Shown piece by piece: positions 5,201 to 22,000 of a DNA stretch of 22,518 nucleotides; within the stretch, counting starts at the first letter, position 1; the number at the start of each line of letters is the position of its first letter. The position numbers and the translations under genes are program-made. The stretch lies in assembly GCA_000002435.2 (NCBI GenBank), contig AACB03000010.1; one strand, given 5' to 3'. The notes under the pieces were generated by a model. It ran no database searches and was not told the DNA's origin. It saw only the letters and a program-made list of their open reading frames with translations. The stretch comes from Giardia intestinalis (taxonomy: Eukaryota).

Positions 5201-5372
5201 ACAGGAGCATACCCCTGGAGCTGGGGAGAAGGCCCCCCTGGCCGCGCCCCCGCCGCGAGACCACGCGGGCACGGGGGCTGGGCGCCCCGGGCGGGCCCTT
5301 CCCCTCCGTCGTGAGGCTGCCTCCCCTCCAATGTCCTTACCGCCTTGCGCGCATATTACGTAGTAAACCGCC
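2284..5372 (+). repeat. Tandem array of four 775-bp monomers. The units are 2284-3054 (771 bp with 4 homopolymer deletions), 3055-3829, 3830-4604 and 4605-5372 (the terminal unit, lacking the last 7 bp 'tctgtct').
   Basis: Exact 775-bp periodicity is seen in identical strings and in the ORF-track repeats at 3020/3795/4570. Each unit starts 'ggttctctgggctcgcgcttccc' and ends 'cgcgcatattacgtagtaaaccgcc' + 'tctgtct'. Confidence 0.95.
5362..5367 (+). promoter_or_regulatory. AGTAAA hexamer (a poly(A)-signal variant; it also fits the AGTRAAY consensus as AGTAAAC), 8 nt upstream of the A16 tract.
   Basis: The sequence reads 'tacgtAGTAAAccgcccct(a)16'. The same hexamer ends every 775-bp monomer. It is a known functional variant of AATAAA, and its position fits a cleavage/polyadenylation site. 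Confidence 0.45.
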
Positions 5373-5375
5373 CCT

Positions 5376-5391
5376 AAAAAAAAAAAAAAAA
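5376..5391 (+). other. Pure A16 tract. It is either the poly(A) tail of the upstream element or an A-rich initiator located 2 nt upstream of the ATG.
   Basis: Homopolymer of 16 A between 'taaaccgcccct' and 'ccATG'. The length is identical at all three unit junctions. Confidence 0.9.
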
Positions 5392-5393
5392 CC

Positions 5394-8300
5394 ATGCGTT
5401 CCGCCCTTTCCGCGCCTTCGGGAACCACGGAGATCGGGGCTTCCTCAGGCCCAGAGCCTCCCAACCACGCTCCAACCGACTCCCACAGGCCCCTACCTAG
5501 GGGCACTCCCGATCCTATGACGCTGGGTGACGGCAACGATGCCTCGACGACCGCCATGGCCCGGCCTTCCTCTTGCGAGCCCCTCTGCGGCTCCCACGGG
5601 CCCCCATCCCCCCAGCCTGGGCCTGGCAACAGCCGTTCCGCCACGGACAACTCTCCCAATGAGTCTTCTCCTGTCCATGGCTTACAGGGCTCCGGGGCCT
5701 CGGTGGCCCGGGACGCCTCTCCTCCCTGCCTGTCGAACGACCTTCTGCCCTGTGGCCAGGAGCCCCTCCCGATTCCCGACGACGGCCTCCCATACGACCT
5801 GGGCCACGACAACTCCCCGTCCATCACGGACGAGCAGGAGGCCCGGGGCGCAGACCTGCCTGCTCCTGGGGGCCGTACGACTGTCTGCGAGCGCTGCGGA
5901 GAGGTGCTGCCTGACTCTGCGGCGATCGATGTCCACATCGGGATGCACCATCCGCCTCCCGGTTCACCTTCTCCGTCGCGCAGCCCTTCTCCGCTGTCGG
6001 GGTCTGCCCCTCCACCTGCAGCCGCCGAGCCCTCTCCCTCGCCAACGCCGGACCCTGTGTTCCCGTATGCATGCAGCATGTGCCGGGCCCGATACAAAAC
6101 GGAGAGGGGGCTGAAGGCCCATATCGCCAGGCTCGGCCACTACCTCCCGCTCGACGCCACAGTCCCCGAGCGCATCGGGGTGCCTAGTGGCAGCCCGTCC
6201 CCTGAGCTGCTTCGCCTCCTCACTGACGTATTCACAGAGATGGCGGGGCGCCTTCCTCCTGTAGAGGCCCTAGCGCGCTTCCTCTCGACGTGCCGCCGCA
6301 TGGAGGGCTCTGGACGGCTCCCCCCGGCGCAGTCGCTTCTCCGGAAGGGGCTGCTCGGCCGGGCATGGCAGGCGCTGTTGAGCGAGACGTCCTCTGCCGC
6401 CAGGGTCCCCGAGCCCCAGGGCAAGGAGCGGGAAGCGATTGTCCATGAGCTCCACCCGCGCCCCATGCCTGTCTCTCTGCCCCCCGTCCATCACGTGCTC
6501 GGCCCGTCGCCCAAGATAACGGCCAAGGCGCTGCTGAAGGAGCTGCAGGCGATGAGGCCTGTCGCGGCCGGACCCTCTGGGCTGGGGAAGCCTCACCTCC
6601 TGCACCTTTGTGGGGCCGCCGGGGCTGCGGAGCTCTTCACCTCTGTCCTGACGACCCTCTTCTCCAGCAGGAACTGGGCCCAGCTCCAGCCCCTGTGCGA
6701 GTTCAGGCTGAAGCTTCTGCCCAAGTCTGGCGGCCGATGGCGCCCTATCGCAGTGCAGGAGACGCTTCTGGTCGCCTTCCACCGCTTGCTCCTGCGTCGG
6801 ACTCCCGCGCTCCGCAAGCTCCCGGCGTGGCAGCTGGCCTTTGAGCACCTCGCCCAGATGAAGGCGATCCGCGCGGCCGAGGAGCTGAAGAGGACACACC
6901 ACCTGCTCACGGTGGATGTGCGGAATGCCTTCAACAGCGTCCCGCATTCCGTCATCCTCTTTGCGCTCCGCCGGGCAGGGGTGGTCCAGCCGACCGTCGC
7001 GTACATTGAGTCGTTCCTCGCGGCTCGGCACTCCTCGGACCTCCCCGCGGTCCCAGCGGGCGTGCCACAGGGGGACCCGCTGTCCATGGCGATGTTCTGC
7101 CAGAGCCTTGTCTGGCCGGTGGAGACGTACCTCGGCCAGTACAAGGTCGTTGCATACGCCGACGACCTCGTCATTGCGTCAGAGGAGGCGATTCCCATAG
7201 ATACCGTGAAGAGTGACGCGCAGTCTGCCCTCTCCCGCATAGGGCTCACGGTCGAGCTCTCGAAGTGCTCCTCGACCCAGGCCGGGGCGATCTCCTTCAT
7301 GGGCACCCGCGTGCTCAAGCACTCCTCCTTCAACCTCGCGCAGACATCGGCCCGCCGGCTCCACGAGCATCTCGCCGTCCTCCGTGCTTCGGGTCTCTCA
7401 CTCCACGACCGCCTCAGGCTCCTGTCTGCCTGCGTCGTCCCTGCAGTTAACTATGGACCCCTTGTTGACGACTACCCGGGCCCGTCCCCCTATGCCGACG
7501 TCGATGCGCAGATAGTGGAGGAGGTCGCGACCCTTCTGGAGATCCCCGAACCCCTTGCGAAGACCCTTGCTCTGACGCCCCGCGCGAAGTACGGCCTCGG
7601 ACTGGTGCTGCCCCATCACTACTACGACGAGATGCACAGGCAGCGCCAGGACATGAAGGCGGGCGTCTTCCGCGAGCTGAGGAAGAAGCGCCTGCAGGAC
7701 ACGGCCGCGCTCCGATCCTTCCTGCCGCTCGCATTGCTGGGCTGCGCACCCCTGGACAACACGCAGGTCCTGTTCATAGGGGACTGCTTGGCGGGGAGGT
7801 ACCAGCGGGGCCGGCCGATGGGCACGTGCTGCCACTGCAAGCAGCCCTTCCTTCCCAGGCACCATCTGGTGTGCAAGGCCATTAACGGGATTCACGTGGC
7901 GCGGCACGACAAGATTCTGGACGCCCTGCTCGCGTGCTCCCGCGGTCGCGCTGGGTCTGTTGTGCGCAATCCCACGATCCCAGTGGATCACCTCCAGCCT
8001 GACCTTGTCATCGGTGGGGGCTTCGGGGACTTGGTGGTCACTGTCCCGTGGAGGCTGGAGCGGTCCTATGCCCTGAAGGCCGCCAAGTATCGCCCCCTCG
8101 TGCTCCAGGGGCGGGCGGCCCACATCCTCCCCGTCGTGGTCGGTGCTGACGGCGTCCTGCACCACCTGTCTGCGGCCGGACTCGCGTTCGCCGGCGTGGA
8201 CCTTGCGCGCTTCATGCAGGAGGCGGCGCAGGTCATCCTCTGGCACTACAGGCTGTCGGCCCTCCTGTACGCTGGGCTGCGAGTGGAGAGGCCGGTGCAC

Positions 8301-8723
8301 CGCCCCGCCCCTGCAGTATCCCTGCCGGAACCGGCTCCCAACGAGGCTCGGGCTACTCCTCCTACTCCCCTCACCCCTGCCATGTGGAGCCCTGGCACGT
8401 CGCCCTCCGTAGAGATCATGGCCGATCTCAGCCAGCATCCTGATGCGGCAGTCCCTCCTCCCTGGGGTCCTGCTGAGGTCTCCTCCTCGATCACCTGGGG
8501 CACCGATCACCCCGCACAGCCGGATGCAAACGAACGCCCAGACCCCTTCATGTGCTCAAGGGCCCCCTCCCCGCCTCCACTGGATGACGACAGCCCCGAC
8601 GATGCAGGAGCACCCGAGCCGGTGCACAAGGCCCTGCCGTCCTTCTTCAAGCGCGTCGGTCCTCCCAAGCCGCATGCCCCTGATGGCTTCTACCCCTTCA
8701 AACGCATCGACACGGGGCGCTAG
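5394..8723 (+). CDS. Non-LTR retrotransposon polyprotein (1109 aa). It has an N-terminal S/P-rich region, 2x C2H2 zinc finger, reverse transcriptase, a CCHC motif and a REL (PD-(D/E)xK) endonuclease. The C-terminal ~150 aa is a P-rich extension.
   Basis: Intact RT motifs are present: LPKSGGRWRPIAV (motifs 1/2), LLTVDVRNAFNSVPH (A), AGVPQGDPLSMAMF (B'), VVAYADDLVIAS (C, YADD at 7155..7166), LTVELSKCS (D). CCHC 'CCHCKQPFLPRHHLVC' is followed by 'RHDKIL'. The endonuclease segment reads 'QPDLVIGGGFGDLVVTVPWRLERSYALKAAKY', matching the R2-type PDLV...D-V-T-V...K..KY pattern. The ATG sits immediately after the A16 tract. Antisense ORFs are low-complexity. Confidence 0.9.
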   Translation: MRSALSAPSGTTEIGASSGPEPPNHAPTDSHRPLPRGTPDPMTLGDGNDASTTAMARPSSCEPLCGSHGPPSPQPGPGNSRSATDNSPNESSPVHGLQGSGASVARDASPPCLSNDLLPCGQEPLPIPDDGLPYDLGHDNSPSITDEQEARGADLPAPGGRTTVCERCGEVLPDSAAIDVHIGMHHPPPGSPSPSRSPSPLSGSAPPPAAAEPSPSPTPDPVFPYACSMCRARYKTERGLKAHIARLGHYLPLDATVPERIGVPSGSPSPELLRLLTDVFTEMAGRLPPVEALARFLSTCRRMEGSGRLPPAQSLLRKGLLGRAWQALLSETSSAARVPEPQGKEREAIVHELHPRPMPVSLPPVHHVLGPSPKITAKALLKELQAMRPVAAGPSGLGKPHLLHLCGAAGAAELFTSVLTTLFSSRNWAQLQPLCEFRLKLLPKSGGRWRPIAVQETLLVAFHRLLLRRTPALRKLPAWQLAFEHLAQMKAIRAAEELKRTHHLLTVDVRNAFNSVPHSVILFALRRAGVVQPTVAYIESFLAARHSSDLPAVPAGVPQGDPLSMAMFCQSLVWPVETYLGQYKVVAYADDLVIASEEAIPIDTVKSDAQSALSRIGLTVELSKCSSTQAGAISFMGTRVLKHSSFNLAQTSARRLHEHLAVLRASGLSLHDRLRLLSACVVPAVNYGPLVDDYPGPSPYADVDAQIVEEVATLLEIPEPLAKTLALTPRAKYGLGLVLPHHYYDEMHRQRQDMKAGVFRELRKKRLQDTAALRSFLPLALLGCAPLDNTQVLFIGDCLAGRYQRGRPMGTCCHCKQPFLPRHHLVCKAINGIHVARHDKILDALLACSRGRAGSVVRNPTIPVDHLQPDLVIGGGFGDLVVTVPWRLERSYALKAAKYRPLVLQGRAAHILPVVVGADGVLHHLSAAGLAFAGVDLARFMQEAAQVILWHYRLSALLYAGLRVERPVHRPAPAVSLPEPAPNEARATPPTPLTPAMWSPGTSPSVEIMADLSQHPDAAVPPPWGPAEVSSSITWGTDHPAQPDANERPDPFMCSRAPSPPPLDDDSPDDAGAPEPVHKALPSFFKRVGPPKPHAPDGFYPFKRIDTGR
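5886..5952 (+). other. C2H2 zinc finger 1 (C-x2-C-x12-H-x3-H): CERCGEVLPDSAAIDVHIGMHH.
   Basis: Spacing of the Cys/His residues in the translated ORF. Confidence 0.75.
6072..6140 (+). other. C2H2 zinc finger 2 (C-x2-C-x12-H-x5-H): CSMCRARYKTERGLKAHIARLGH.
   Basis: Spacing of the Cys/His residues. It is separated from ZF1 by an SP-rich linker (SPSPSRSPSPLSGS...). Confidence 0.7.
6700..7320 (+). other. Reverse-transcriptase core (motifs 1 to E).
   Basis: LPK at 6717-6725, YADD at 7155-7166, FMGTRV at 7296-7313. Confidence 0.85.
7827..8090 (+). other. CCHC zinc motif plus restriction-enzyme-like (PD-(D/E)xK) endonuclease domain.
   Basis: tgc tgc cac tgc at 7827-7838, PD at 7998-8003, D of 'GDLVVTV' at 8028-8030, K..KY at ~8076-8090. 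Confidence 0.8.
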
Positions 8724-10080
8724 TGGTCATGCTTGGGCACCCTGCCCGCTGTCGGCTGCCCCACAGCGCGAACGGACCCCTGGGCCTGCGTGCCGAGCTG
8801 TCTCCCCTGGTACTCCTCGCTCGCACCCGAGGCCTCTTGCCCCTATCATTCGGGTGTGCATCACGTCCAGACACGGTGCGATAGATGCCTAGCCGCGATG
8901 CCATACACACTCGACCAGGCCGGGCCAGGCCGGACGCCCCCCTGGATGGCCAGACACCCGCCCTGCCTACGTTTGGGCACTTCCTCGATGGGACTCGTCA
9001 TCTGCCCACGCCGCAGCCCGGTGTTCGTCTGTCTGTCCTCCCGGGCAGCGGCGGTCCTTGGGTGCTGAGTCTGGCGAGCTGGTGCTGGGGGAAGAGGCTA
9101 GCCCCGTGTGTCATTCGTACCATCGCACCGCGCCGTGCTGATCCCCCCATGGAACTGCCCGCCAGTGGCCGCCTCCGGTCCGGGGCGGCACAGCCCTGGC
9201 TCGGGCCATCCTCTGCTGCAGCGCCCCGGTGCCCCCTGGAGAGGATGGCCGGGTGCTATGTGCTACTGAGCCCTCGGGTGCATCGCTTCCCCACTGCCCC
9301 CCCTCATGTACCCACTCTGGGCGCCCCGGTACAGGGAACCTGGTCACTCTGGCCCTGGCCTCCAGGTGCTTGCCCTCCAATGGGCCATCCCTCATGCGCC
9401 TGTGTTTGCCTGGCCCATTCTCCCCTGCTCCTCTCTACCTCTCCTGCTCGGTCTCCGCTGAGTCGCGGTGACGGCTGTTGACAGTCCCGGCCGGGCCCCC
9501 AGGTTTCGCTCCATACCTGGGCCACATGCCTCCCACCAGCGCTGGCACCACATGGGTTGCTTGTCACAGATGGGACTGGCACGCACAGAAGAATATGGCT
9601 CCACGGCGCTCTGCCGGTCTGTCCTGAGCTGGCGTCATCAGCCTGGACCCGCCCTTAGGGGGCCTCCTCCATCACCCGTGCCTCCCCACACCACCTCCTA
9701 AGCCGTCAGTCTGCTCTCTCAGGCGTGACCTTCTGTCGGCCTCCTGGGCCGTATGGGACCACCGCCCCGCTGCCCCCGCCATCTTGGCCAGACGCCTCCG
9801 GTGAGCCACCATTCTGGAATAGCACGACACGTGTGGATGGGCTAGCTATGGCGCACGGTCCGCACCCTCCCTTCTCACGGACTCCCGGGGACAGTCCGGA
9901 CGCGTCTCCCTTGTCCCCCGAATCGGTGGCCCCGGCCGATCCCCATCGTGCATCCTTATATGGGGCACTGCACACACCTGTCCACGCTGTCCCCTTGGGC
10001 CGGCCACAGCTCACCCCGTGTGTCGATGGGCCAGAATTTGGGCTCCCCAAACCCCTCCACCCCCAAGCTGTTTCCTCGCC
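8724..10080 (+). other. Unique 1357-bp non-coding region following the ORF stop (candidate 3' UTR). It ends '...ccaagctgtttcctcgcc' immediately before the first monomer.
   Basis: Conserved in all units. It has no convincing coding potential. The ORFs in it (e.g. 8885..9481) are P/G/R-rich and out of frame with the RT. Confidence 0.65.
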
Positions 10081-10848
10081 GGTTCTCTGGGCTCGCGCTT
10101 CCCTTTTTAGTGCAACAGCATTATGGTGCCTCGCGTATGTGCGCGGTGCAGTGGGCCGGTCTGTAGGCCTGCCTTTGACTGGAATCCTGGATCCCTGGGT
10201 TTCTGGCCCGACGCGTCGTCTTCTACCCCCCAAACAGGCCTGCACTCTTCTTGGTCCACGGGCTATTTGTCTCTTTGTTTCCGCGGCCCAGGGCCTGCTG
10301 GTTGCGCCGGGGCGACGCTCATGGTGGATTTTATTTTTTCCAAAATCCAGAATTTGGGCCTGAAGACCGCCCCCGCAGGGCCTGGAGGATGCGGGGAATC
10401 GGTCCACCCACACCATGCGCTCGAGCAAAGGCCAAGCACCCACGCCATCACGTCTCATCCAGGACTCCTGCGCCGCCACGGAGGAGGATCGGCACCTTCG
10501 CCATCGATCCTCCAGGATGCCCCCCTACCACTCCCCCTCACATGGCACGCCTCCCTCGGGCCTGTATGTCTGCATGCCGCTATGCCCTAACACCGCAGGC
10601 CGCCCTCTCCGCGGATCCACTAACACACAGCCTGCAGCGCCTGGCCCCCCTGGCCGTGACCCGCGCGCCCCCGCGCACAGGAGCATACCCCTGGAGCTGG
10701 GGAGAAGGCCCCCCTGGCCGCGCCCCCGCCGCGAGACCACGCGGGCACGGGGGCTGGGCGCCCCGGGCGGGCCCTTCCCCTCCGTCGTGAGGCTGCCTCC
10801 CCTCCAATGTCCTTACCGCCTTGCGCGCATATTACGTAGTAAACCGCC
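10081..10848 (+). repeat. Single (terminal-type, 768-bp) copy of the 775-bp monomer.
   Basis: Identical to the terminal monomers 4605-5372 and 17882-18649. Confidence 0.95.
10838..10843 (+). promoter_or_regulatory. AGTAAA poly(A)-signal-like hexamer, 8 nt before the A16 tract.
   Basis: Same context as 5362-5367. Confidence 0.45.
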
Positions 10849-10851
10849 CCT

Positions 10852-10867
10852 AAAAAAAAAAAAAAAA
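10852..10867 (+). other. A16 tract at the unit junction.
   Basis: 16 A's, followed by 'cc' and then ATG at 10870. Confidence 0.9.
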
Positions 10868-10869
10868 CC

Positions 10870-13800
10870 ATGCGTTCCGCCCTTTCCGCGCCTTCGGGAA
10901 CCACGGAGATCGGGGCTTCCTCAGGCCCAGAGCCTCCCAACCACGCTCCAACCGACTCCCACAGGCCCCTACCTAGGGGCACTCCCGATCCTATGACGCT
11001 GGGTGACGGCAACGATGCCTCGACGACCGCCATGGCCCGGCCTTCCTCTTGCGAGCCCCTCTGCGGCTCCCACGGGCCCCCATCCCCCCAGCCTGGGCCT
11101 GGCAACAGCCGTTCCGCCACGGACAACTCTCCCAATGAGTCTTCTCCTGTCCATGGCTTACAGGGCTCCGGGGCCTCGGTGGCCCGGGACGCCTCTCCTC
11201 CCTGCCTGTCGAACGACCTTCTGCCCTGTGGCCAGGAGCCCCTCCCGATTCCCGACGACGGCCTCCCATACGACCTGGGCCACGACAACTCCCCGTCCAT
11301 CACGGACGAGCAGGAGGCCCGGGGCGCAGACCTGCCTGCTCCTGGGGGCCGTACGACTGTCTGCGAGCGCTGCGGAGAGGTGCTGCCTGACTCTGCGGCG
11401 ATCGATGTCCACATCGGGATGCACCATCCGCCTCCCGGTTCACCTTCTCCGTCGCGCAGCCCTTCTCCGCTGTCGGGGTCTGCCCCTCCACCTGCAGCCG
11501 CCGAGCCCTCTCCCTCGCCAACGCCGGACCCTGTGTTCCCGTATGCATGCAGCATGTGCCGGGCCCGATACAAAACGGAGAGGGGGCTGAAGGCCCATAT
11601 CGCCAGGCTCGGCCACTACCTCCCGCTCGACGCCACAGTCCCCGAGCGCATCGGGGTGCCTAGTGGCAGCCCGTCCCCTGAGCTGCTTCGCCTCCTCACT
11701 GACGTATTCACAGAGATGGCGGGGCGCCTTCCTCCTGTAGAGGCCCTAGCGCGCTTCCTCTCGACGTGCCGCCGCATGGAGGGCTCTGGACGGCTCCCCC
11801 CGGCGCAGTCGCTTCTCCGGAAGGGGCTGCTCGGCCGGGCATGGCAGGCGCTGTTGAGCGAGACGTCCTCTGCCGCCAGGGTCCCCGAGCCCCAGGGCAA
11901 GGAGCGGGAAGCGATTGTCCATGAGCTCCACCCGCGCCCCATGCCTGTCTCTCTGCCCCCCGTCCATCACGTGCTCGGCCCGTCGCCCAAGATAACGGCC
12001 AAGGCGCTGCTGAAGGAGCTGCAGGCGATGAGGCCTGTCGCGGCCGGACCCTCTGGGCTGGGGAAGCCTCACCTCCTGCACCTTTGTGGGGCCGCCGGGG
12101 CTGCGGAGCTCTTCACCTCTGTCCTGACGACCCTCTTCTCCAGCAGGAACTGGGCCCAGCTCCAGCCCCTGTGCGAGTTCAGGCTGAAGCTTCTGCCCAA
12201 GTCTGGCGGCCGATGGCGCCCTATCGCAGTGCAGGAGACGCTTCTGGTCGCCTTCCACCGCTTGCTCCTGCGTCGGACTCCCGCGCTCCGCAAGCTCCCG
12301 GCGTGGCAGCTGGCCTTTGAGCACCTCGCCCAGATGAAGGCGATCCGCGCGGCCGAGGAGCTGAAGAGGACACACCACCTGCTCACGGTGGATGTGCGGA
12401 ATGCCTTCAACAGCGTCCCGCATTCCGTCATCCTCTTTGCGCTCCGCCGGGCAGGGGTGGTCCAGCCGACCGTCGCGTACATTGAGTCGTTCCTCGCGGC
12501 TCGGCACTCCTCGGACCTCCCCGCGGTCCCAGCGGGCGTGCCACAGGGGGACCCGCTGTCCATGGCGATGTTCTGCCAGAGCCTTGTCTGGCCGGTGGAG
12601 ACGTACCTCGGCCAGTACAAGGTCGTTGCATACGCCGACGACCTCGTCATTGCGTCAGAGGAGGCGATTCCCATAGATACCGTGAAGAGTGACGCGCAGT
12701 CTGCCCTCTCCCGCATAGGGCTCACGGTCGAGCTCTCGAAGTGCTCCTCGACCCAGGCCGGGGCGATCTCCTTCATGGGCACCCGCGTGCTCAAGCACTC
12801 CTCCTTCAACCTCGCGCAGACATCGGCCCGCCGGCTCCACGAGCATCTCGCCGTCCTCCGTGCTTCGGGTCTCTCACTCCACGACCGCCTCAGGCTCCTG
12901 TCTGCCTGCGTCGTCCCTGCAGTTAACTATGGACCCCTTGTTGACGACTACCCGGGCCCGTCCCCCTATGCCGACGTCGATGCGCAGATAGTGGAGGAGG
13001 TCGCGACCCTTCTGGAGATCCCCGAACCCCTTGCGAAGACCCTTGCTCTGACGCCCCGCGCGAAGTACGGCCTCGGACTGGTGCTGCCCCATCACTACTA
13101 CGACGAGATGCACAGGCAGCGCCAGGACATGAAGGCGGGCGTCTTCCGCGAGCTGAGGAAGAAGCGCCTGCAGGACACGGCCGCGCTCCGATCCTTCCTG
13201 CCGCTCGCATTGCTGGGCTGCGCACCCCTGGACAACACGCAGGTCCTGTTCATAGGGGACTGCTTGGCGGGGAGGTACCAGCGGGGCCGGCCGATGGGCA
13301 CGTGCTGCCACTGCAAGCAGCCCTTCCTTCCCAGGCACCATCTGGTGTGCAAGGCCATTAACGGGATTCACGTGGCGCGGCACGACAAGATTCTGGACGC
13401 CCTGCTCGCGTGCTCCCGCGGTCGCGCTGGGTCTGTTGTGCGCAATCCCACGATCCCAGTGGATCACCTCCAGCCTGACCTTGTCATCGGTGGGGGCTTC
13501 GGGGACTTGGTGGTCACTGTCCCGTGGAGGCTGGAGCGGTCCTATGCCCTGAAGGCCGCCAAGTATCGCCCCCTCGTGCTCCAGGGGCGGGCGGCCCACA
13601 TCCTCCCCGTCGTGGTCGGTGCTGACGGCGTCCTGCACCACCTGTCTGCGGCCGGACTCGCGTTCGCCGGCGTGGACCTTGCGCGCTTCATGCAGGAGGC
13701 GGCGCAGGTCATCCTCTGGCACTACAGGCTGTCGGCCCTCCTGTACGCTGGGCTGCGAGTGGAGAGGCCGGTGCACCGCCCCGCCCCTGCAGTATCCCTG

Positions 13801-14199
13801 CCGGAACCGGCTCCCAACGAGGCTCGGGCTACTCCTCCTACTCCCCTCACCCCTGCCATGTGGAGCCCTGGCACGTCGCCCTCCGTAGAGATCATGGCCG
13901 ATCTCAGCCAGCATCCTGATGCGGCAGTCCCTCCTCCCTGGGGTCCTGCTGAGGTCTCCTCCTCGATCACCTGGGGCACCGATCACCCCGCACAGCCGGA
14001 TGCAAACGAACGCCCAGACCCCTTCATGTGCTCAAGGGCCCCCTCCCCGCCTCCACTGGATGACGACAGCCCCGACGATGCAGGAGCACCCGAGCCGGTG
14101 CACAAGGCCCTGCCGTCCTTCTTCAAGCGCGTCGGTCCTCCCAAGCCGCATGCCCCTGATGGCTTCTACCCCTTCAAACGCATCGACACGGGGCGCTAG
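10870..14199 (+). CDS. Non-LTR retrotransposon RT/REL-endonuclease polyprotein, second full copy (1109 aa, identical translation).
   Basis: The ORF-track protein is identical to 5394..8723. All overlapping alternative-frame ORFs are also identical, implying nucleotide identity. Confidence 0.9.
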   Translation: MRSALSAPSGTTEIGASSGPEPPNHAPTDSHRPLPRGTPDPMTLGDGNDASTTAMARPSSCEPLCGSHGPPSPQPGPGNSRSATDNSPNESSPVHGLQGSGASVARDASPPCLSNDLLPCGQEPLPIPDDGLPYDLGHDNSPSITDEQEARGADLPAPGGRTTVCERCGEVLPDSAAIDVHIGMHHPPPGSPSPSRSPSPLSGSAPPPAAAEPSPSPTPDPVFPYACSMCRARYKTERGLKAHIARLGHYLPLDATVPERIGVPSGSPSPELLRLLTDVFTEMAGRLPPVEALARFLSTCRRMEGSGRLPPAQSLLRKGLLGRAWQALLSETSSAARVPEPQGKEREAIVHELHPRPMPVSLPPVHHVLGPSPKITAKALLKELQAMRPVAAGPSGLGKPHLLHLCGAAGAAELFTSVLTTLFSSRNWAQLQPLCEFRLKLLPKSGGRWRPIAVQETLLVAFHRLLLRRTPALRKLPAWQLAFEHLAQMKAIRAAEELKRTHHLLTVDVRNAFNSVPHSVILFALRRAGVVQPTVAYIESFLAARHSSDLPAVPAGVPQGDPLSMAMFCQSLVWPVETYLGQYKVVAYADDLVIASEEAIPIDTVKSDAQSALSRIGLTVELSKCSSTQAGAISFMGTRVLKHSSFNLAQTSARRLHEHLAVLRASGLSLHDRLRLLSACVVPAVNYGPLVDDYPGPSPYADVDAQIVEEVATLLEIPEPLAKTLALTPRAKYGLGLVLPHHYYDEMHRQRQDMKAGVFRELRKKRLQDTAALRSFLPLALLGCAPLDNTQVLFIGDCLAGRYQRGRPMGTCCHCKQPFLPRHHLVCKAINGIHVARHDKILDALLACSRGRAGSVVRNPTIPVDHLQPDLVIGGGFGDLVVTVPWRLERSYALKAAKYRPLVLQGRAAHILPVVVGADGVLHHLSAAGLAFAGVDLARFMQEAAQVILWHYRLSALLYAGLRVERPVHRPAPAVSLPEPAPNEARATPPTPLTPAMWSPGTSPSVEIMADLSQHPDAAVPPPWGPAEVSSSITWGTDHPAQPDANERPDPFMCSRAPSPPPLDDDSPDDAGAPEPVHKALPSFFKRVGPPKPHAPDGFYPFKRIDTGR

Positions 14200-15556
14200 T
14201 GGTCATGCTTGGGCACCCTGCCCGCTGTCGGCTGCCCCACAGCGCGAACGGACCCCTGGGCCTGCGTGCCGAGCTGTCTCCCCTGGTACTCCTCGCTCGC
14301 ACCCGAGGCCTCTTGCCCCTATCATTCGGGTGTGCATCACGTCCAGACACGGTGCGATAGATGCCTAGCCGCGATGCCATACACACTCGACCAGGCCGGG
14401 CCAGGCCGGACGCCCCCCTGGATGGCCAGACACCCGCCCTGCCTACGTTTGGGCACTTCCTCGATGGGACTCGTCATCTGCCCACGCCGCAGCCCGGTGT
14501 TCGTCTGTCTGTCCTCCCGGGCAGCGGCGGTCCTTGGGTGCTGAGTCTGGCGAGCTGGTGCTGGGGGAAGAGGCTAGCCCCGTGTGTCATTCGTACCATC
14601 GCACCGCGCCGTGCTGATCCCCCCATGGAACTGCCCGCCAGTGGCCGCCTCCGGTCCGGGGCGGCACAGCCCTGGCTCGGGCCATCCTCTGCTGCAGCGC
14701 CCCGGTGCCCCCTGGAGAGGATGGCCGGGTGCTATGTGCTACTGAGCCCTCGGGTGCATCGCTTCCCCACTGCCCCCCCTCATGTACCCACTCTGGGCGC
14801 CCCGGTACAGGGAACCTGGTCACTCTGGCCCTGGCCTCCAGGTGCTTGCCCTCCAATGGGCCATCCCTCATGCGCCTGTGTTTGCCTGGCCCATTCTCCC
14901 CTGCTCCTCTCTACCTCTCCTGCTCGGTCTCCGCTGAGTCGCGGTGACGGCTGTTGACAGTCCCGGCCGGGCCCCCAGGTTTCGCTCCATACCTGGGCCA
15001 CATGCCTCCCACCAGCGCTGGCACCACATGGGTTGCTTGTCACAGATGGGACTGGCACGCACAGAAGAATATGGCTCCACGGCGCTCTGCCGGTCTGTCC
15101 TGAGCTGGCGTCATCAGCCTGGACCCGCCCTTAGGGGGCCTCCTCCATCACCCGTGCCTCCCCACACCACCTCCTAAGCCGTCAGTCTGCTCTCTCAGGC
15201 GTGACCTTCTGTCGGCCTCCTGGGCCGTATGGGACCACCGCCCCGCTGCCCCCGCCATCTTGGCCAGACGCCTCCGGTGAGCCACCATTCTGGAATAGCA
15301 CGACACGTGTGGATGGGCTAGCTATGGCGCACGGTCCGCACCCTCCCTTCTCACGGACTCCCGGGGACAGTCCGGACGCGTCTCCCTTGTCCCCCGAATC
15401 GGTGGCCCCGGCCGATCCCCATCGTGCATCCTTATATGGGGCACTGCACACACCTGTCCACGCTGTCCCCTTGGGCCGGCCACAGCTCACCCCGTGTGTC
15501 GATGGGCCAGAATTTGGGCTCCCCAAACCCCTCCACCCCCAAGCTGTTTCCTCGCC
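14200..15556 (+). other. Unique ~1.36-kb post-ORF region (candidate 3' UTR), copy 2.
   Basis: Identical to 8724..10080. Confidence 0.65.
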
Positions 15557-18500
15557 GGTTCTCTGGGCTCGCGCTTCCCTTTTTAGTGCAACAGCATTAT
15601 GGTGCCTCGCGTATGTGCGCGGTGCAGTGGGCCGGTCTGTAGGCCTGCCTTTGACTGGAATCCTGGATCCCTGGGTTTCTGGCCCGACGCGTCGTCTTCT
15701 ACCCCCCAAACAGGCCTGCACTCTTCTTGGTCCACGGGCTATTTGTCTCTTTGTTTCCGCGGCCCAGGGCCTGCTGGTTGCGCCGGGGCGACGCTCATGG
15801 TGGATTTTATTTTTTCCAAAATCCAGAATTTGGGCCTGAAGACCGCCCCCGCAGGGCCTGGAGGATGCGGGGAATCGGTCCACCCACACCATGCGCTCGA
15901 GCAAAGGCCAAGCACCCACGCCATCACGTCTCATCCAGGACTCCTGCGCCGCCACGGAGGAGGATCGGCACCTTCGCCATCGATCCTCCAGGATGCCCCC
16001 CTACCACTCCCCCTCACATGGCACGCCTCCCTCGGGCCTGTATGTCTGCATGCCGCTATGCCCTAACACCGCAGGCCGCCCTCTCCGCGGATCCACTAAC
16101 ACACAGCCTGCAGCGCCTGGCCCCCCTGGCCGTGACCCGCGCGCCCCCGCGCACAGGAGCATACCCCTGGAGCTGGGGAGAAGGCCCCCCTGGCCGCGCC
16201 CCCGCCGCGAGACCACGCGGGCACGGGGGCTGGGCGCCCCGGGCGGGCCCTTCCCCTCCGTCGTGAGGCTGCCTCCCCTCCAATGTCCTTACCGCCTTGC
16301 GCGCATATTACGTAGTAAACCGCCTCTGTCTGGTTCTCTGGGCTCGCGCTTCCCTTTTTAGTGCAACAGCATTATGGTGCCTCGCGTATGTGCGCGGTGC
16401 AGTGGGCCGGTCTGTAGGCCTGCCTTTGACTGGAATCCTGGATCCCTGGGTTTCTGGCCCGACGCGTCGTCTTCTACCCCCCAAACAGGCCTGCACTCTT
16501 CTTGGTCCACGGGCTATTTGTCTCTTTGTTTCCGCGGCCCAGGGCCTGCTGGTTGCGCCGGGGCGACGCTCATGGTGGATTTTATTTTTTCCAAAATCCA
16601 GAATTTGGGCCTGAAGACCGCCCCCGCAGGGCCTGGAGGATGCGGGGAATCGGTCCACCCACACCATGCGCTCGAGCAAAGGCCAAGCACCCACGCCATC
16701 ACGTCTCATCCAGGACTCCTGCGCCGCCACGGAGGAGGATCGGCACCTTCGCCATCGATCCTCCAGGATGCCCCCCTACCACTCCCCCTCACATGGCACG
16801 CCTCCCTCGGGCCTGTATGTCTGCATGCCGCTATGCCCTAACACCGCAGGCCGCCCTCTCCGCGGATCCACTAACACACAGCCTGCAGCGCCTGGCCCCC
16901 CTGGCCGTGACCCGCGCGCCCCCGCGCACAGGAGCATACCCCTGGAGCTGGGGAGAAGGCCCCCCTGGCCGCGCCCCCGCCGCGAGACCACGCGGGCACG
17001 GGGGCTGGGCGCCCCGGGCGGGCCCTTCCCCTCCGTCGTGAGGCTGCCTCCCCTCCAATGTCCTTACCGCCTTGCGCGCATATTACGTAGTAAACCGCCT
17101 CTGTCTGGTTCTCTGGGCTCGCGCTTCCCTTTTTAGTGCAACAGCATTATGGTGCCTCGCGTATGTGCGCGGTGCAGTGGGCCGGTCTGTAGGCCTGCCT
17201 TTGACTGGAATCCTGGATCCCTGGGTTTCTGGCCCGACGCGTCGTCTTCTACCCCCCAAACAGGCCTGCACTCTTCTTGGTCCACGGGCTATTTGTCTCT
17301 TTGTTTCCGCGGCCCAGGGCCTGCTGGTTGCGCCGGGGCGACGCTCATGGTGGATTTTATTTTTTCCAAAATCCAGAATTTGGGCCTGAAGACCGCCCCC
17401 GCAGGGCCTGGAGGATGCGGGGAATCGGTCCACCCACACCATGCGCTCGAGCAAAGGCCAAGCACCCACGCCATCACGTCTCATCCAGGACTCCTGCGCC
17501 GCCACGGAGGAGGATCGGCACCTTCGCCATCGATCCTCCAGGATGCCCCCCTACCACTCCCCCTCACATGGCACGCCTCCCTCGGGCCTGTATGTCTGCA
17601 TGCCGCTATGCCCTAACACCGCAGGCCGCCCTCTCCGCGGATCCACTAACACACAGCCTGCAGCGCCTGGCCCCCCTGGCCGTGACCCGCGCGCCCCCGC
17701 GCACAGGAGCATACCCCTGGAGCTGGGGAGAAGGCCCCCCTGGCCGCGCCCCCGCCGCGAGACCACGCGGGCACGGGGGCTGGGCGCCCCGGGCGGGCCC
17801 TTCCCCTCCGTCGTGAGGCTGCCTCCCCTCCAATGTCCTTACCGCCTTGCGCGCATATTACGTAGTAAACCGCCTCTGTCTGGTTCTCTGGGCTCGCGCT
17901 TCCCTTTTTAGTGCAACAGCATTATGGTGCCTCGCGTATGTGCGCGGTGCAGTGGGCCGGTCTGTAGGCCTGCCTTTGACTGGAATCCTGGATCCCTGGG
18001 TTTCTGGCCCGACGCGTCGTCTTCTACCCCCCAAACAGGCCTGCACTCTTCTTGGTCCACGGGCTATTTGTCTCTTTGTTTCCGCGGCCCAGGGCCTGCT
18101 GGTTGCGCCGGGGCGACGCTCATGGTGGATTTTATTTTTTCCAAAATCCAGAATTTGGGCCTGAAGACCGCCCCCGCAGGGCCTGGAGGATGCGGGGAAT
18201 CGGTCCACCCACACCATGCGCTCGAGCAAAGGCCAAGCACCCACGCCATCACGTCTCATCCAGGACTCCTGCGCCGCCACGGAGGAGGATCGGCACCTTC
18301 GCCATCGATCCTCCAGGATGCCCCCCTACCACTCCCCCTCACATGGCACGCCTCCCTCGGGCCTGTATGTCTGCATGCCGCTATGCCCTAACACCGCAGG
18401 CCGCCCTCTCCGCGGATCCACTAACACACAGCCTGCAGCGCCTGGCCCCCCTGGCCGTGACCCGCGCGCCCCCGCGCACAGGAGCATACCCCTGGAGCTG

Positions 18501-18649
18501 GGGAGAAGGCCCCCCTGGCCGCGCCCCCGCCGCGAGACCACGCGGGCACGGGGGCTGGGCGCCCCGGGCGGGCCCTTCCCCTCCGTCGTGAGGCTGCCTC
18601 CCCTCCAATGTCCTTACCGCCTTGCGCGCATATTACGTAGTAAACCGCC
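15557..18649 (+). repeat. Tandem array of four 775-bp monomers: 15557-16331, 16332-17106, 17107-17881 and 17882-18649 (terminal, 768 bp).
   Basis: Exact periodicity. ORF-track repeats are seen at 16297/17072/17847. Confidence 0.95.
18639..18644 (+). promoter_or_regulatory. AGTAAA poly(A)-signal-like hexamer, 8 nt before the A16 tract.
   Basis: Same context as the other junctions. Confidence 0.45.
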
Positions 18650-18652
18650 CCT

Positions 18653-18668
18653 AAAAAAAAAAAAAAAA
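18653..18668 (+). other. A16 tract at the unit junction.
   Basis: 16 A's, followed by 'cc' and then ATG at 18671. Confidence 0.9.
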
Positions 18669-18670
18669 CC

Positions 18671-21600
18671 ATGCGTTCCGCCCTTTCCGCGCCTTCGGGA
18701 ACCACGGAGATCGGGGCTTCCTCAGGCCCAGAGCCTCCCAACCACGCTCCAACCGACTCCCACAGGCCCCTACCTAGGGGCACTCCCGATCCTATGACGC
18801 TGGGTGACGGCAACGATGCCTCGACGACCGCCATGGCCCGGCCTTCCTCTTGCGAGCCCCTCTGCGGCTCCCACGGGCCCCCATCCCCCCAGCCTGGGCC
18901 TGGCAACAGCCGTTCCGCCACGGACAACTCTCCCAATGAGTCTTCTCCTGTCCATGGCTTACAGGGCTCCGGGGCCTCGGTGGCCCGGGACGCCTCTCCT
19001 CCCTGCCTGTCGAACGACCTTCTGCCCTGTGGCCAGGAGCCCCTCCCGATTCCCGACGACGGCCTCCCATACGACCTGGGCCACGACAACTCCCCGTCCA
19101 TCACGGACGAGCAGGAGGCCCGGGGCGCAGACCTGCCTGCTCCTGGGGGCCGTACGACTGTCTGCGAGCGCTGCGGAGAGGTGCTGCCTGACTCTGCGGC
19201 GATCGATGTCCACATCGGGATGCACCATCCGCCTCCCGGTTCACCTTCTCCGTCGCGCAGCCCTTCTCCGCTGTCGGGGTCTGCCCCTCCACCTGCAGCC
19301 GCCGAGCCCTCTCCCTCGCCAACGCCGGACCCTGTGTTCCCGTATGCATGCAGCATGTGCCGGGCCCGATACAAAACGGAGAGGGGGCTGAAGGCCCATA
19401 TCGCCAGGCTCGGCCACTACCTCCCGCTCGACGCCACAGTCCCCGAGCGCATCGGGGTGCCTAGTGGCAGCCCGTCCCCTGAGCTGCTTCGCCTCCTCAC
19501 TGACGTATTCACAGAGATGGCGGGGCGCCTTCCTCCTGTAGAGGCCCTAGCGCGCTTCCTCTCGACGTGCCGCCGCATGGAGGGCTCTGGACGGCTCCCC
19601 CCGGCGCAGTCGCTTCTCCGGAAGGGGCTGCTCGGCCGGGCATGGCAGGCGCTGTTGAGCGAGACGTCCTCTGCCGCCAGGGTCCCCGAGCCCCAGGGCA
19701 AGGAGCGGGAAGCGATTGTCCATGAGCTCCACCCGCGCCCCATGCCTGTCTCTCTGCCCCCCGTCCATCACGTGCTCGGCCCGTCGCCCAAGATAACGGC
19801 CAAGGCGCTGCTGAAGGAGCTGCAGGCGATGAGGCCTGTCGCGGCCGGACCCTCTGGGCTGGGGAAGCCTCACCTCCTGCACCTTTGTGGGGCCGCCGGG
19901 GCTGCGGAGCTCTTCACCTCTGTCCTGACGACCCTCTTCTCCAGCAGGAACTGGGCCCAGCTCCAGCCCCTGTGCGAGTTCAGGCTGAAGCTTCTGCCCA
20001 AGTCTGGCGGCCGATGGCGCCCTATCGCAGTGCAGGAGACGCTTCTGGTCGCCTTCCACCGCTTGCTCCTGCGTCGGACTCCCGCGCTCCGCAAGCTCCC
20101 GGCGTGGCAGCTGGCCTTTGAGCACCTCGCCCAGATGAAGGCGATCCGCGCGGCCGAGGAGCTGAAGAGGACACACCACCTGCTCACGGTGGATGTGCGG
20201 AATGCCTTCAACAGCGTCCCGCATTCCGTCATCCTCTTTGCGCTCCGCCGGGCAGGGGTGGTCCAGCCGACCGTCGCGTACATTGAGTCGTTCCTCGCGG
20301 CTCGGCACTCCTCGGACCTCCCCGCGGTCCCAGCGGGCGTGCCACAGGGGGACCCGCTGTCCATGGCGATGTTCTGCCAGAGCCTTGTCTGGCCGGTGGA
20401 GACGTACCTCGGCCAGTACAAGGTCGTTGCATACGCCGACGACCTCGTCATTGCGTCAGAGGAGGCGATTCCCATAGATACCGTGAAGAGTGACGCGCAG
20501 TCTGCCCTCTCCCGCATAGGGCTCACGGTCGAGCTCTCGAAGTGCTCCTCGACCCAGGCCGGGGCGATCTCCTTCATGGGCACCCGCGTGCTCAAGCACT
20601 CCTCCTTCAACCTCGCGCAGACATCGGCCCGCCGGCTCCACGAGCATCTCGCCGTCCTCCGTGCTTCGGGTCTCTCACTCCACGACCGCCTCAGGCTCCT
20701 GTCTGCCTGCGTCGTCCCTGCAGTTAACTATGGACCCCTTGTTGACGACTACCCGGGCCCGTCCCCCTATGCCGACGTCGATGCGCAGATAGTGGAGGAG
20801 GTCGCGACCCTTCTGGAGATCCCCGAACCCCTTGCGAAGACCCTTGCTCTGACGCCCCGCGCGAAGTACGGCCTCGGACTGGTGCTGCCCCATCACTACT
20901 ACGACGAGATGCACAGGCAGCGCCAGGACATGAAGGCGGGCGTCTTCCGCGAGCTGAGGAAGAAGCGCCTGCAGGACACGGCCGCGCTCCGATCCTTCCT
21001 GCCGCTCGCATTGCTGGGCTGCGCACCCCTGGACAACACGCAGGTCCTGTTCATAGGGGACTGCTTGGCGGGGAGGTACCAGCGGGGCCGGCCGATGGGC
21101 ACGTGCTGCCACTGCAAGCAGCCCTTCCTTCCCAGGCACCATCTGGTGTGCAAGGCCATTAACGGGATTCACGTGGCGCGGCACGACAAGATTCTGGACG
21201 CCCTGCTCGCGTGCTCCCGCGGTCGCGCTGGGTCTGTTGTGCGCAATCCCACGATCCCAGTGGATCACCTCCAGCCTGACCTTGTCATCGGTGGGGGCTT
21301 CGGGGACTTGGTGGTCACTGTCCCGTGGAGGCTGGAGCGGTCCTATGCCCTGAAGGCCGCCAAGTATCGCCCCCTCGTGCTCCAGGGGCGGGCGGCCCAC
21401 ATCCTCCCCGTCGTGGTCGGTGCTGACGGCGTCCTGCACCACCTGTCTGCGGCCGGACTCGCGTTCGCCGGCGTGGACCTTGCGCGCTTCATGCAGGAGG
21501 CGGCGCAGGTCATCCTCTGGCACTACAGGCTGTCGGCCCTCCTGTACGCTGGGCTGCGAGTGGAGAGGCCGGTGCACCGCCCCGCCCCTGCAGTATCCCT

Positions 21601-22000
21601 GCCGGAACCGGCTCCCAACGAGGCTCGGGCTACTCCTCCTACTCCCCTCACCCCTGCCATGTGGAGCCCTGGCACGTCGCCCTCCGTAGAGATCATGGCC
21701 GATCTCAGCCAGCATCCTGATGCGGCAGTCCCTCCTCCCTGGGGTCCTGCTGAGGTCTCCTCCTCGATCACCTGGGGCACCGATCACCCCGCACAGCCGG
21801 ATGCAAACGAACGCCCAGACCCCTTCATGTGCTCAAGGGCCCCCTCCCCGCCTCCACTGGATGACGACAGCCCCGACGATGCAGGAGCACCCGAGCCGGT
21901 GCACAAGGCCCTGCCGTCCTTCTTCAAGCGCGTCGGTCCTCCCAAGCCGCATGCCCCTGATGGCTTCTACCCCTTCAAACGCATCGACACGGGGCGCTAG
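18671..22000 (+). CDS. Non-LTR retrotransposon RT/REL-endonuclease polyprotein, third full copy (1109 aa, identical translation).
   Basis: The ORF-track protein is identical to the other two copies. Confidence 0.9.
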   Translation: MRSALSAPSGTTEIGASSGPEPPNHAPTDSHRPLPRGTPDPMTLGDGNDASTTAMARPSSCEPLCGSHGPPSPQPGPGNSRSATDNSPNESSPVHGLQGSGASVARDASPPCLSNDLLPCGQEPLPIPDDGLPYDLGHDNSPSITDEQEARGADLPAPGGRTTVCERCGEVLPDSAAIDVHIGMHHPPPGSPSPSRSPSPLSGSAPPPAAAEPSPSPTPDPVFPYACSMCRARYKTERGLKAHIARLGHYLPLDATVPERIGVPSGSPSPELLRLLTDVFTEMAGRLPPVEALARFLSTCRRMEGSGRLPPAQSLLRKGLLGRAWQALLSETSSAARVPEPQGKEREAIVHELHPRPMPVSLPPVHHVLGPSPKITAKALLKELQAMRPVAAGPSGLGKPHLLHLCGAAGAAELFTSVLTTLFSSRNWAQLQPLCEFRLKLLPKSGGRWRPIAVQETLLVAFHRLLLRRTPALRKLPAWQLAFEHLAQMKAIRAAEELKRTHHLLTVDVRNAFNSVPHSVILFALRRAGVVQPTVAYIESFLAARHSSDLPAVPAGVPQGDPLSMAMFCQSLVWPVETYLGQYKVVAYADDLVIASEEAIPIDTVKSDAQSALSRIGLTVELSKCSSTQAGAISFMGTRVLKHSSFNLAQTSARRLHEHLAVLRASGLSLHDRLRLLSACVVPAVNYGPLVDDYPGPSPYADVDAQIVEEVATLLEIPEPLAKTLALTPRAKYGLGLVLPHHYYDEMHRQRQDMKAGVFRELRKKRLQDTAALRSFLPLALLGCAPLDNTQVLFIGDCLAGRYQRGRPMGTCCHCKQPFLPRHHLVCKAINGIHVARHDKILDALLACSRGRAGSVVRNPTIPVDHLQPDLVIGGGFGDLVVTVPWRLERSYALKAAKYRPLVLQGRAAHILPVVVGADGVLHHLSAAGLAFAGVDLARFMQEAAQVILWHYRLSALLYAGLRVERPVHRPAPAVSLPEPAPNEARATPPTPLTPAMWSPGTSPSVEIMADLSQHPDAAVPPPWGPAEVSSSITWGTDHPAQPDANERPDPFMCSRAPSPPPLDDDSPDDAGAPEPVHKALPSFFKRVGPPKPHAPDGFYPFKRIDTGR

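Follow-up and report, generated by a model that had tools for sequence, protein, structure and literature searches.

Where is the promoter of a gene that starts only two nucleotides behind a run of A residues with which its upstream neighbour ends? The question is raised by a 22,518-nt stretch of Giardia intestinalis DNA (assembly GCA_000002435.2, contig AACB03000010.1), hereafter called the window, which consists of four head-to-tail units of one element, the known Giardia duodenalis telomere-associated retrotransposon GilT/Genie 1, of the non-LTR kind (without long terminal repeats). In these units an open reading frame (ORF) of 1109 aa is followed by a unique 3' untranslated region (UTR) of ~1.36 kb and then by one 775-bp monomer (unit 2) or four such monomers (units 1 and 3), so that the 3' UTR totals 2.1-4.5 kb and ends with the polyadenylation signal AGTAAAC plus 7 nt, behind which stands a poly(A) tail. 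The answer that we cautiously regard as probable is that the downstream copy is transcribed from a promoter formed by the poly(A) signal region and tail of its upstream neighbour, in the manner of the Drosophila telomeric element HeT-A; both the start of transcription and the requirement for the A-run are what we infer from the layout of the DNA.

A promoter-like layout at the unit junction

The junction at 10852-10872 reads A16-CC-ATG and opens the ORF of unit 3. As an earlier note on this DNA had claimed, nothing but CC lies between the A-tract and the ATG. The parts of the junction are the following:

10829-10844, plus strand: ATATTACGTAGTAAAC, an A/T-rich segment at -41 to -26 from the ATG that contains AGTAAAC; proposed TATA-like -30 element
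10838-10844, plus strand: polyadenylation signal AGTAAAC, matching the Giardia consensus
10852-10867, plus strand: A16 run, proposed to be the poly(A) tail left by unit 2 and the A-rich initiator that serves unit 3
10868-10869, plus strand: CC dinucleotide, the sole bases between the A-run and the ATG
10870-10872, plus strand: start codon ATG of unit 3

The same junction occurs at 5376-5396 and 18653-18673 (with A16 at 5376-5391 and 18653-18668), and the 60 nt preceding it are identical in all three places. Runs of 12 or more A residues are found in the window only at these three junctions, none being expected from 100 shuffles. The run begins 7 nt past AGTAAAC and is absent from the six junctions between monomers.

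Such an arrangement can be compared with what is known of Giardia genes in general. Their leaders measure 1-14 nt and their ribosomes are non-scanning (PMC3610916), even single-nucleotide leaders being efficiently translated (PMC1872034; PMC3792122). The core promoter consists of an A/T-rich initiator at the transcription start site (TSS) and a TATA-like A/T-rich element at about -30, and ~50 bp are enough for it (PMC1885649; PMC1872034). The consensus from sequencing of start sites (TSS-seq) is A/T-rich from -5 to +5 with A as the start base (PMC3792122), and the enrichment in A reaches 13 nt upstream of start codons (PMC7641422). The polyadenylation signal consensus is AGT[A/G]AA[T/C] (PMC1872034).

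Because the units abut exactly, the 45 nt before each ATG are made up of the A/T-rich poly(A)-signal segment, a C-rich spacer, the A-run and CC. As judged from its bases, this layout reproduces the two-element Giardia core promoter: a pure run of 6-16 A residues stands 2-3 nt before the ATG at all 11 full-length junctions that we compared (three here, the others described below), and a second A/T-rich element, here ATATTACGTAGTAAAC, has its counterpart in an AGTAAAY-containing segment in all families. The A+T content at -50 to -1 from the ATG is 0.52-0.66 against a background of 0.27-0.36, which places these segments in the top 0.1-2% of windows; within a unit, A/T-rich patches occur at the junction and once per monomer, and there are none in the ORF. 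Ordinary genes beside the arrays have four or five A residues directly before the ATG (...TTCAAAA-ATG, ...GTTAAAA-ATG, ...AATAAAAACCG-ATG), and one reads AAAAACCG-ATG. The TSS-seq supplement of PMC3792122 has no entries for these element genes, and a bacterial promoter and terminator scan came back empty, its bacterial models being irrelevant to Giardia.

These comparisons qualify two statements of the earlier note. It had pointed to the near-absence of a 5' UTR, and the ORF does start 2 nt past the A-run, but this is no anomaly by the standard of Giardia leaders or of the neighbouring genes. It had also sought the promoter in the A-tract and monomer of the preceding unit; the A-run and AGTAAAC region is indeed the sole A/T-rich DNA within reach, but the monomer as a whole is not implicated, since the promoter layout is matched by no more than its final ~45 nt, made up of the poly(A) signal region and the tail.

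Recurrence of the junction in diverged families

The units of the window are 100% identical and all carry A16, so the window by itself amounts to a sample of one junction. Unit 2 equals the first 5457 nt of unit 3 base for base. This identity, together with A16 at all three junctions, indicates, on the face of the sequence, amplification or conversion at the DNA level, or smoothing during assembly, and not independent retrotransposition. With the three window copies counting as one event, independent replication has to come from other loci. We compared P15 contigs (L001, L004 and L008), a GS-type contig (L003), a DH contig (L007) and contigs from metagenomes or the SRA (L002, L005 and L006); a JGI metagenome scan for further loci yielded no relatives.

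The proteins of the diverged families are 53-63% identical in amino acids to the window ORF. Eight further junctions, from P15, DH-like, GS-like and metagenome elements, share the form A(n)-CC-ATG, and all full-length junctions follow one plan: AGTAAAY, 6-9 nt, a pure A-run, then CC, CCA or CCC, and ATG. The run is uninterrupted and CC, CCA or CCC is kept in 11 of 11 cases, the invariant alignment columns being AGTAAA, the A-run, one C and the ATG. Nine of the junctions are distinct and represent at least six lineages, with runs of 16, 15, 12, 12, 10, 9, 8, 7 and 6 residues. Since the plan recurs at eight other junctions, it is a feature of the family and not due to chance.

The duplication of whole units nonetheless invites another explanation, namely that the junction is a structural by-product of copy joining and DNA amplification, with no promoter role. 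Copies would then be joined by target-primed reverse transcription or by end-to-end template jumping onto a poly(A) tail, and the arrays would be largely silent or mere noise for small-RNA pathways. Identical units with an identical A16 do indicate unequal crossing-over or conversion; Giardia transcribes promiscuously from any A/T-rich patch (PMC1885649), and the small RNAs that have been reported from the element were judged by one group to be degradation products (PMC2583053). Against this stand the intact ORFs of 1109-1160 aa that open at the junction ATG in at least five diverged families and the consistent purity of the A-runs, and under the published Giardia rules a run so near to an ATG would be expected to serve as an initiator. 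We consider the by-product explanation unlikely, albeit the one that deserves most attention among the alternatives to an upstream tail acting as promoter.

Upstream of the junction, the 3' UTR is conserved between families only in its last ~200 nt, at 77-88%. Part of this segment is a block that stands out:

10705-10783, plus strand: GC-rich block of ~80 nt within the last 200 nt of the 3' UTR, repeated before every junction

The block is 80-90% conserved between families whose proteins share the 53-63% identity given above. It contains GGCCCCCCTGGCC, a second GGCCCCCCTGGCC lying ~65 nt upstream. From its conservation it could be a site at which the reverse transcriptase (RT) recognizes the 3' end of the RNA, or else an upstream promoter element. 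For the conserved 3'-terminal 200 nt a consensus fold is predicted, with 0 compensatory pairs (no covariation).

A proposed cycle of promoter and tail

Three features, namely its variable length, its site just past the poly(A) signal and its absence between monomers, suggest that the A-run is a poly(A) tail copied into DNA. That such a tail serves as the neighbour's initiator, and that the polyadenylation signal also plays the part of the -30 element, could well be the case, although we stop short of calling it probable. In the cycle that we propose, RNA polymerase II would initiate within the A-run or at its 3' edge and produce a capped mRNA with a leader of ~2-10 nt, a few A residues plus CC, which would be translated from the first AUG, as non-scanning Giardia ribosomes would do. 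Cleavage and polyadenylation of the mRNA would take place behind any one of the monomers' AGTAAAC signals and, following reverse transcription, the tail of the new copy would supply the initiator for the next copy downstream, while the A residues of the 5' leader would merge invisibly into the tail of the copy upstream. As CC is kept in every copy, the RNA template must start at or upstream of CC, and this retention is consistent with initiation inside the putative A-rich initiator. More speculatively, the A-run may be rebuilt from both sides, one RNA contributing its tail and the following RNA its leader, in what would be an LTR-like terminal redundancy of pure A. Chimeric transcripts bearing monomer sequence, which the earlier note had predicted, would not be required if initiation occurs in the A-run; moreover, AGTAAAC precedes the ORF and long leaders would be poorly translatable.

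Should this reading hold, a single stretch of 45 nt would be both terminator and promoter, and each retrotransposition event would make a promoter. A lone copy or the first copy of an array would be silent until another copy lands upstream of it. The reading would also explain why the element persists only as arrays. The length of the run (6-16) could tune expression and would offer a simple handle on it as well as on antisense and small RNAs. The junction would also be an extreme example of the minimal promoters of Giardia, with a poly(A) tail sufficing. The gain is modest, given that the element and its tandem organisation have long been known and that the mechanism is deduced from sequence. 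An explicit statement of the tail as promoter for GilT was not found in the full-text literature, a scope outside which the original GilT/Genie papers fall.

Array ends and the origin of the A-run

Several observations weigh against the tail of the upstream copy as promoter. The three junctions of the window are a single event copied at the DNA level. Two array-terminal 3' ends lack the run: the last P15a unit (L001:11780-11837) reads AGTAAATTCCCCTC-TGTCTACTCTG..., and the last unit of L007 (5265-5300) reads AGTAAATAACCCTA-CTCTGGCTGC... and then passes into unique DNA. The run is likewise missing at L007:495-520, where AGTAAATTCCCTCTGTCTGG is directly followed by the RT-coding sequence of a 5'-truncated copy. 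A-runs are found only ahead of full-length 5' ends, contrary to a simple upstream-tail model, and part of the run could therefore belong to the leader of the downstream copy. On the other side of the junction, codons 1-41 (10870-10992) are without clear protein-level constraint: between WB and the P15 orthologue the ratio of nonsynonymous to synonymous substitution rates (dN/dS) is 0.86 for these codons, a value based on only 13 substitutions, whereas codons 42-130 give 0.44 and the core 0.13. Finally, the coding sequences deposited in GenBank in 2001 for both WB families (AAL47180.1 and AAL47181.1) begin at residue 42, which means that the original authors did not take the junction ATG as the start.

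These points bear on the assertion of the earlier note that expression must depend on the upstream unit. A promoter-like layout does lie upstream, but the dependence is not proven, the A-run being absent at array-terminal 3' ends. The distribution of the run would fit growth of the array by template jumping or by insertion where a resident copy has its 5' end. The run-less ends in L001 and L007 continue ...CTCTGTCT..., the same bases that stand past the poly(A) site at the internal monomer junctions of the window. For P15 we rejected the possibility that the families have the 775-bp monomer in common as a chromosomal target repeat: the similarity between its two families is confined to the final ~220 nt of the 3' UTR, and the flank past the last P15a unit is not repeated within the units.

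Taken at face value, the same distribution suggests that the A-run, and perhaps more, moves as part of the downstream copy's 5' end. That copy would have an initiator of its own and no strict dependence on a neighbour, with transcription starting at or before the beginning of the run. The presence of the run at every junction leading into a full-length 5' end, its absence from the two array ends and from the junction onto the truncated copy, and the constant retention of CC, which places the RNA start at or upstream of CC, are all in keeping with this. Its position is not: the run starts 6-9 nt past AGTAAAY, where cleavage and polyadenylation are expected, from one family to another its start is displaced by 2-3 nt, as happens with poly(A) sites, and its length varies from 6 to 16. 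Furthermore, an initiator straddling the start site would presumably lose its upstream half in each cycle of retrotransposition. We therefore see an initiator carried along by the downstream copy as rather improbable, and retain the copied tail of the upstream copy as the favoured source of the run.

At the poly(A) site itself, the bases CCCTA (10847-10852; L002:1134-1139) equal the C-strand unit of the telomere repeat (TAGGG)n. Both the WB element and the L002 family have them there, where CCCTC, CCCTT or CTCTG stands in other families, and the match could be due to chance in a C-rich sequence.

The start codon

If the 2001 coding sequences are correct, the true leader would be ~123 nt long and translation would start from Met42 (MTLGDG), as in AAL47180.1; alternatively, transcription would start within the ORF. 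Besides the agreement of the two GenBank entries, this is favoured by the high dN/dS of codons 1-41 combined with their having fewer substitutions than codons 42-130, which hints at constraint at the nucleotide level; these first codons, encoding MRSALSAPSGTTEIGASSGPEPPNHAPTDSHRPLPRGTPDP in the window, are more conserved in nucleotides than codons 42-130.

The cross-family comparison, however, speaks for Met1. Read from the junction ATG, the frame stays open through 1109-1160 codons in each of five diverged families; in six lineages its first 133 codons are free of stops, which do occur in both other frames. No Met except Met1 is conserved in every family. Met42 is not conserved beyond the closest relatives, and both Met42 and Met55 (MARPSS) align with non-Met residues in other families. 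In L004 Met1 is the sole Met in the first 150 residues, while in L001 the next Met falls within the conserved LPHDLGHD motif; in two families no Met other than Met1 precedes this motif. In addition, there is no A/T-rich patch near 10993, long leaders are rare in Giardia and its ribosomes do not scan (PMC3610916; PMC3792122), and the 2020 annotation of WB uses Met1. On balance, Met1 appears favoured over Met42 as the start, and a long leader or a start of transcription inside the ORF seems to us quite improbable.

Anatomy of the array

The G+C content is 65-69% across the whole window and the GC skew is constantly negative, the plus strand thus being C-rich. The four units are laid out as follows:

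1-928, plus strand: unit 1, 3' part of the ORF
929-2283, plus strand: unit 1, unique 3' UTR, equivalent of the unit 3 region
2284-5375, plus strand: unit 1, four monomers
5392-10867, plus strand: complete unit 2, 5476 bp (CC, ORF, unique 3' UTR, one monomer, A16)
5394-8723, plus strand: unit 2, ORF of 1109 aa, identical to that of unit 3
8724-10080, plus strand: unit 2, unique 3' UTR
10081-10851, plus strand: unit 2, single monomer
10868-18668, plus strand: complete unit 3, 7801 bp (CC, ORF, unique 3' UTR, four monomers, A16)
10870-14199, plus strand: unit 3, ORF of 1109 aa with C2H2 zinc fingers, reverse transcriptase, and CCHC and PD..D..K motifs
14200-15556, plus strand: unit 3, unique 3' UTR
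15557-18652, plus strand: unit 3, distal 3' UTR, composed of four 775-bp monomers in tandem, with AGTAAAC in each
18671-22000, plus strand: fourth unit, identical ORF of 1109 aa
22001-22518, plus strand: fourth unit, partial unique 3' UTR
10325-10357, 15801-15833, 16576-16608, 17351-17383 and 18126-18158, with equivalents in unit 1, no strand assigned: A/T-rich patch TGGATTTTATTTTTTCCAAAATCCAGAATTTGG, once per monomer

The six internal monomer junctions of the window read AGTAAACCGCCTCT-GTCT-GGTTCTC, and the terminal monomer ends with AGTAAACCGCCCCT-A16-CC-ATG. Terminal monomers have CCGCCCCT before the A-run (10846-10851), and all internal monomers have CCGCCTCT and then GTCT (compare 16322-16331). 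These four nucleotides are confined to monomer-monomer junctions, so that the monomer measures 771 nt up to the poly(A) site with a repeat period of 775. The first monomer of each unit begins with GGTTCTC after unique ...CCTCGCC; in unit 1 this monomer (2284-3054) deviates by small indels. Tandem Repeats Finder reported no repeats in the window, because the periods of the array exceed 500.

The patch TGGATTTTATTTTTTCCAAAATCCAGAATTTGG contains a 7-bp inverted repeat, GGATTTT/AAAATCC, and on the minus strand it reads AAAAAATAAAATCCACC-ATG, the ORF behind this ATG having only 19 codons. Being A-rich on the minus strand, the patch is a candidate cryptic or antisense promoter, and as such it may feed the antisense and small RNAs that have been reported. 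The P15 orthologue has retained part of the patch (L008 near 5114).

An A/T-rich patch in each monomer also leaves room for a promoter far upstream, either in such a patch or outside the array, from which the element would be read through or co-transcribed and then processed in the way of R2 retrotransposons. The protein is indeed R2-like, and the earlier note's prediction of chimeric transcripts points in the same direction. Yet Rfam gives no ribozyme, rRNA or other family in 8700-14300, even at E<=1; the intact AGTAAAC in every monomer should end such transcripts before they reach the ORF, and the long leaders that they would carry fit poorly with translation in Giardia (PMC1885649; PMC3610916). 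Read-through followed by processing accordingly strikes us as very improbable, even slightly more so than a start at Met42, and a promoter at the unit junction remains the reading that we prefer.

Identity of the element and its protein

The window ORF is 100% identical to the NCBI entries KAE8301202-4, named 'Reverse transcriptase/endonuclease [Giardia duodenalis]', and matches AAL47180.1 in 1068 of 1068 aa. The Genie1 primers printed in PMC1950533 find an exact match in each copy of the ORF, and because of these primers and the published name 'GilT/Genie 1' we assign AAL47180.1 to GilT and not to GilM. In a domain search, the 1109-aa ORF of unit 3 gave RVT_1 at aa 443-639 (E=3.8e-21) and a weak match to a C2H2 zinc finger. 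An alignment of seven family members shows C812/C815/H823-4/C827 (CCHC) and P869-D870...D879...K895 to be invariant; the latter pattern suggests a C-terminal PD..D..K restriction-like endonuclease, identified by its motif and without a profile match. The closest solved structures are those of R2 retrotransposon proteins (E=6e-9 with the single sequence, 1.5e-13 with a profile).

The single ORF with its reverse transcriptase and C-terminal endonuclease (the latter by motif only), the head-to-tail arrays with oligo(A) between the units and the repeat of ~771 bp are those of GilT/Genie 1, whose arrays are known for unusually long 3' UTRs (PMC5537684; PMC10999387). No telomere repeat (TAGGG)n occurs in the 22,518 nt of the window, which lies entirely within an array. 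Transcription of this retrotransposon family has been reported second-hand (PMC1950533; PMC10999387; PMC2583053).

Other features of the compared loci

The GS-type contig has rearranged copies (L003:1-4754 and 7247-7351): in an upstream one the called ORF starts at TTG, and a downstream one has an A7-CCC-ATG junction, but its frame shifts after 35 codons. Beyond a RING gene there is also a weak RT-like remnant (L003 14015-14703). The DH contig has, on the minus strand at L007:6272-9832, an ORF of 1186 aa with a protein-primed DNA polymerase B domain (PF03175, DNA_pol_B_2), situated between the retrotransposon array and a RING-finger gene. Judging from this domain, the ORF may be part of a Polinton/Maverick-like or linear-plasmid-like element adjoining the array. 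The 5'-terminal ~30 nt of L002/L003-type elements (MPSAFFKRIG; L002:1148-1192) resemble 14104-14148 of the window, a segment near the C-terminus of the ORF (KALPSFFKRVG) that is conserved in all families. By its bases, the 5' end of the window element itself resembles a decayed form of the L002/L003-type 5' sequence.

Comparison with known systems

The element is structurally no different from GilT/Genie 1 as described before (Arkhipova & Morrison 2001 PNAS; Burke et al. 2002 MBE). What changes is the start of its coding sequence, Met42 in the 2001 deposit and Met1 in the current genome annotation, the latter being favoured by the comparison across families.

With R2 the element shares a single ORF with N-terminal zinc fingers, RT, and a C-terminal CCHC and PD-(D/E)xK. 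R2, however, integrates into 28S rDNA, its transcription is joined to that of rRNA, and a self-cleaving ribozyme similar to that of hepatitis delta virus releases it, whereas GilT forms arrays with itself, has poly(A) tails and is flanked by its own copies.

The likeness to the canonical Giardia core promoter lies in the A-run beside the ATG and in the second A/T-rich element ~20-30 nt upstream. The differences are that in GilT these elements come from the 3'-end signal of another gene and from a non-templated, RNA-derived tail, and that CC always stands between the run and the ATG.

The closest parallel is offered by HeT-A and TAHRE of Drosophila telomeres, in which the 3' end of one copy drives the copy downstream (PMC5537684), as described under the title 'Promoting in tandem' (Danilevskaya et al. 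1997), a paper of which Arkhipova is also a coauthor (reference list of PMC5537684), so that the original GilT/Genie papers may well have put forward the upstream tail as a promoter already. The earlier note had drawn this analogy, and it is apt: both systems form head-to-tail arrays of one orientation with long 3' UTRs, the 3' end of each copy abutting the 5' end of the next (PMC5537684). Promoter activity has been demonstrated for HeT-A, while for GilT it is proposed from sequence alone. HeT-A belongs to the jockey clade; besides a gag ORF it has a genuine 5' UTR, and its 3' UTR contains a defined promoter, in place of which GilT would use just the poly(A) signal region and the tail. HeT-A transcripts carry 3'-UTR sequence of the upstream copy, whereas the leader of GilT would be a few nucleotides long, and the 5' ends of HeT-A are variably eroded, unlike the precise junctions of GilT, which always have CC-ATG. 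If the reading proposed here is true, GilT would constitute a second and independent case of promoting in tandem, in a very distant eukaryote and in a retrotransposon clade different from that of HeT-A.

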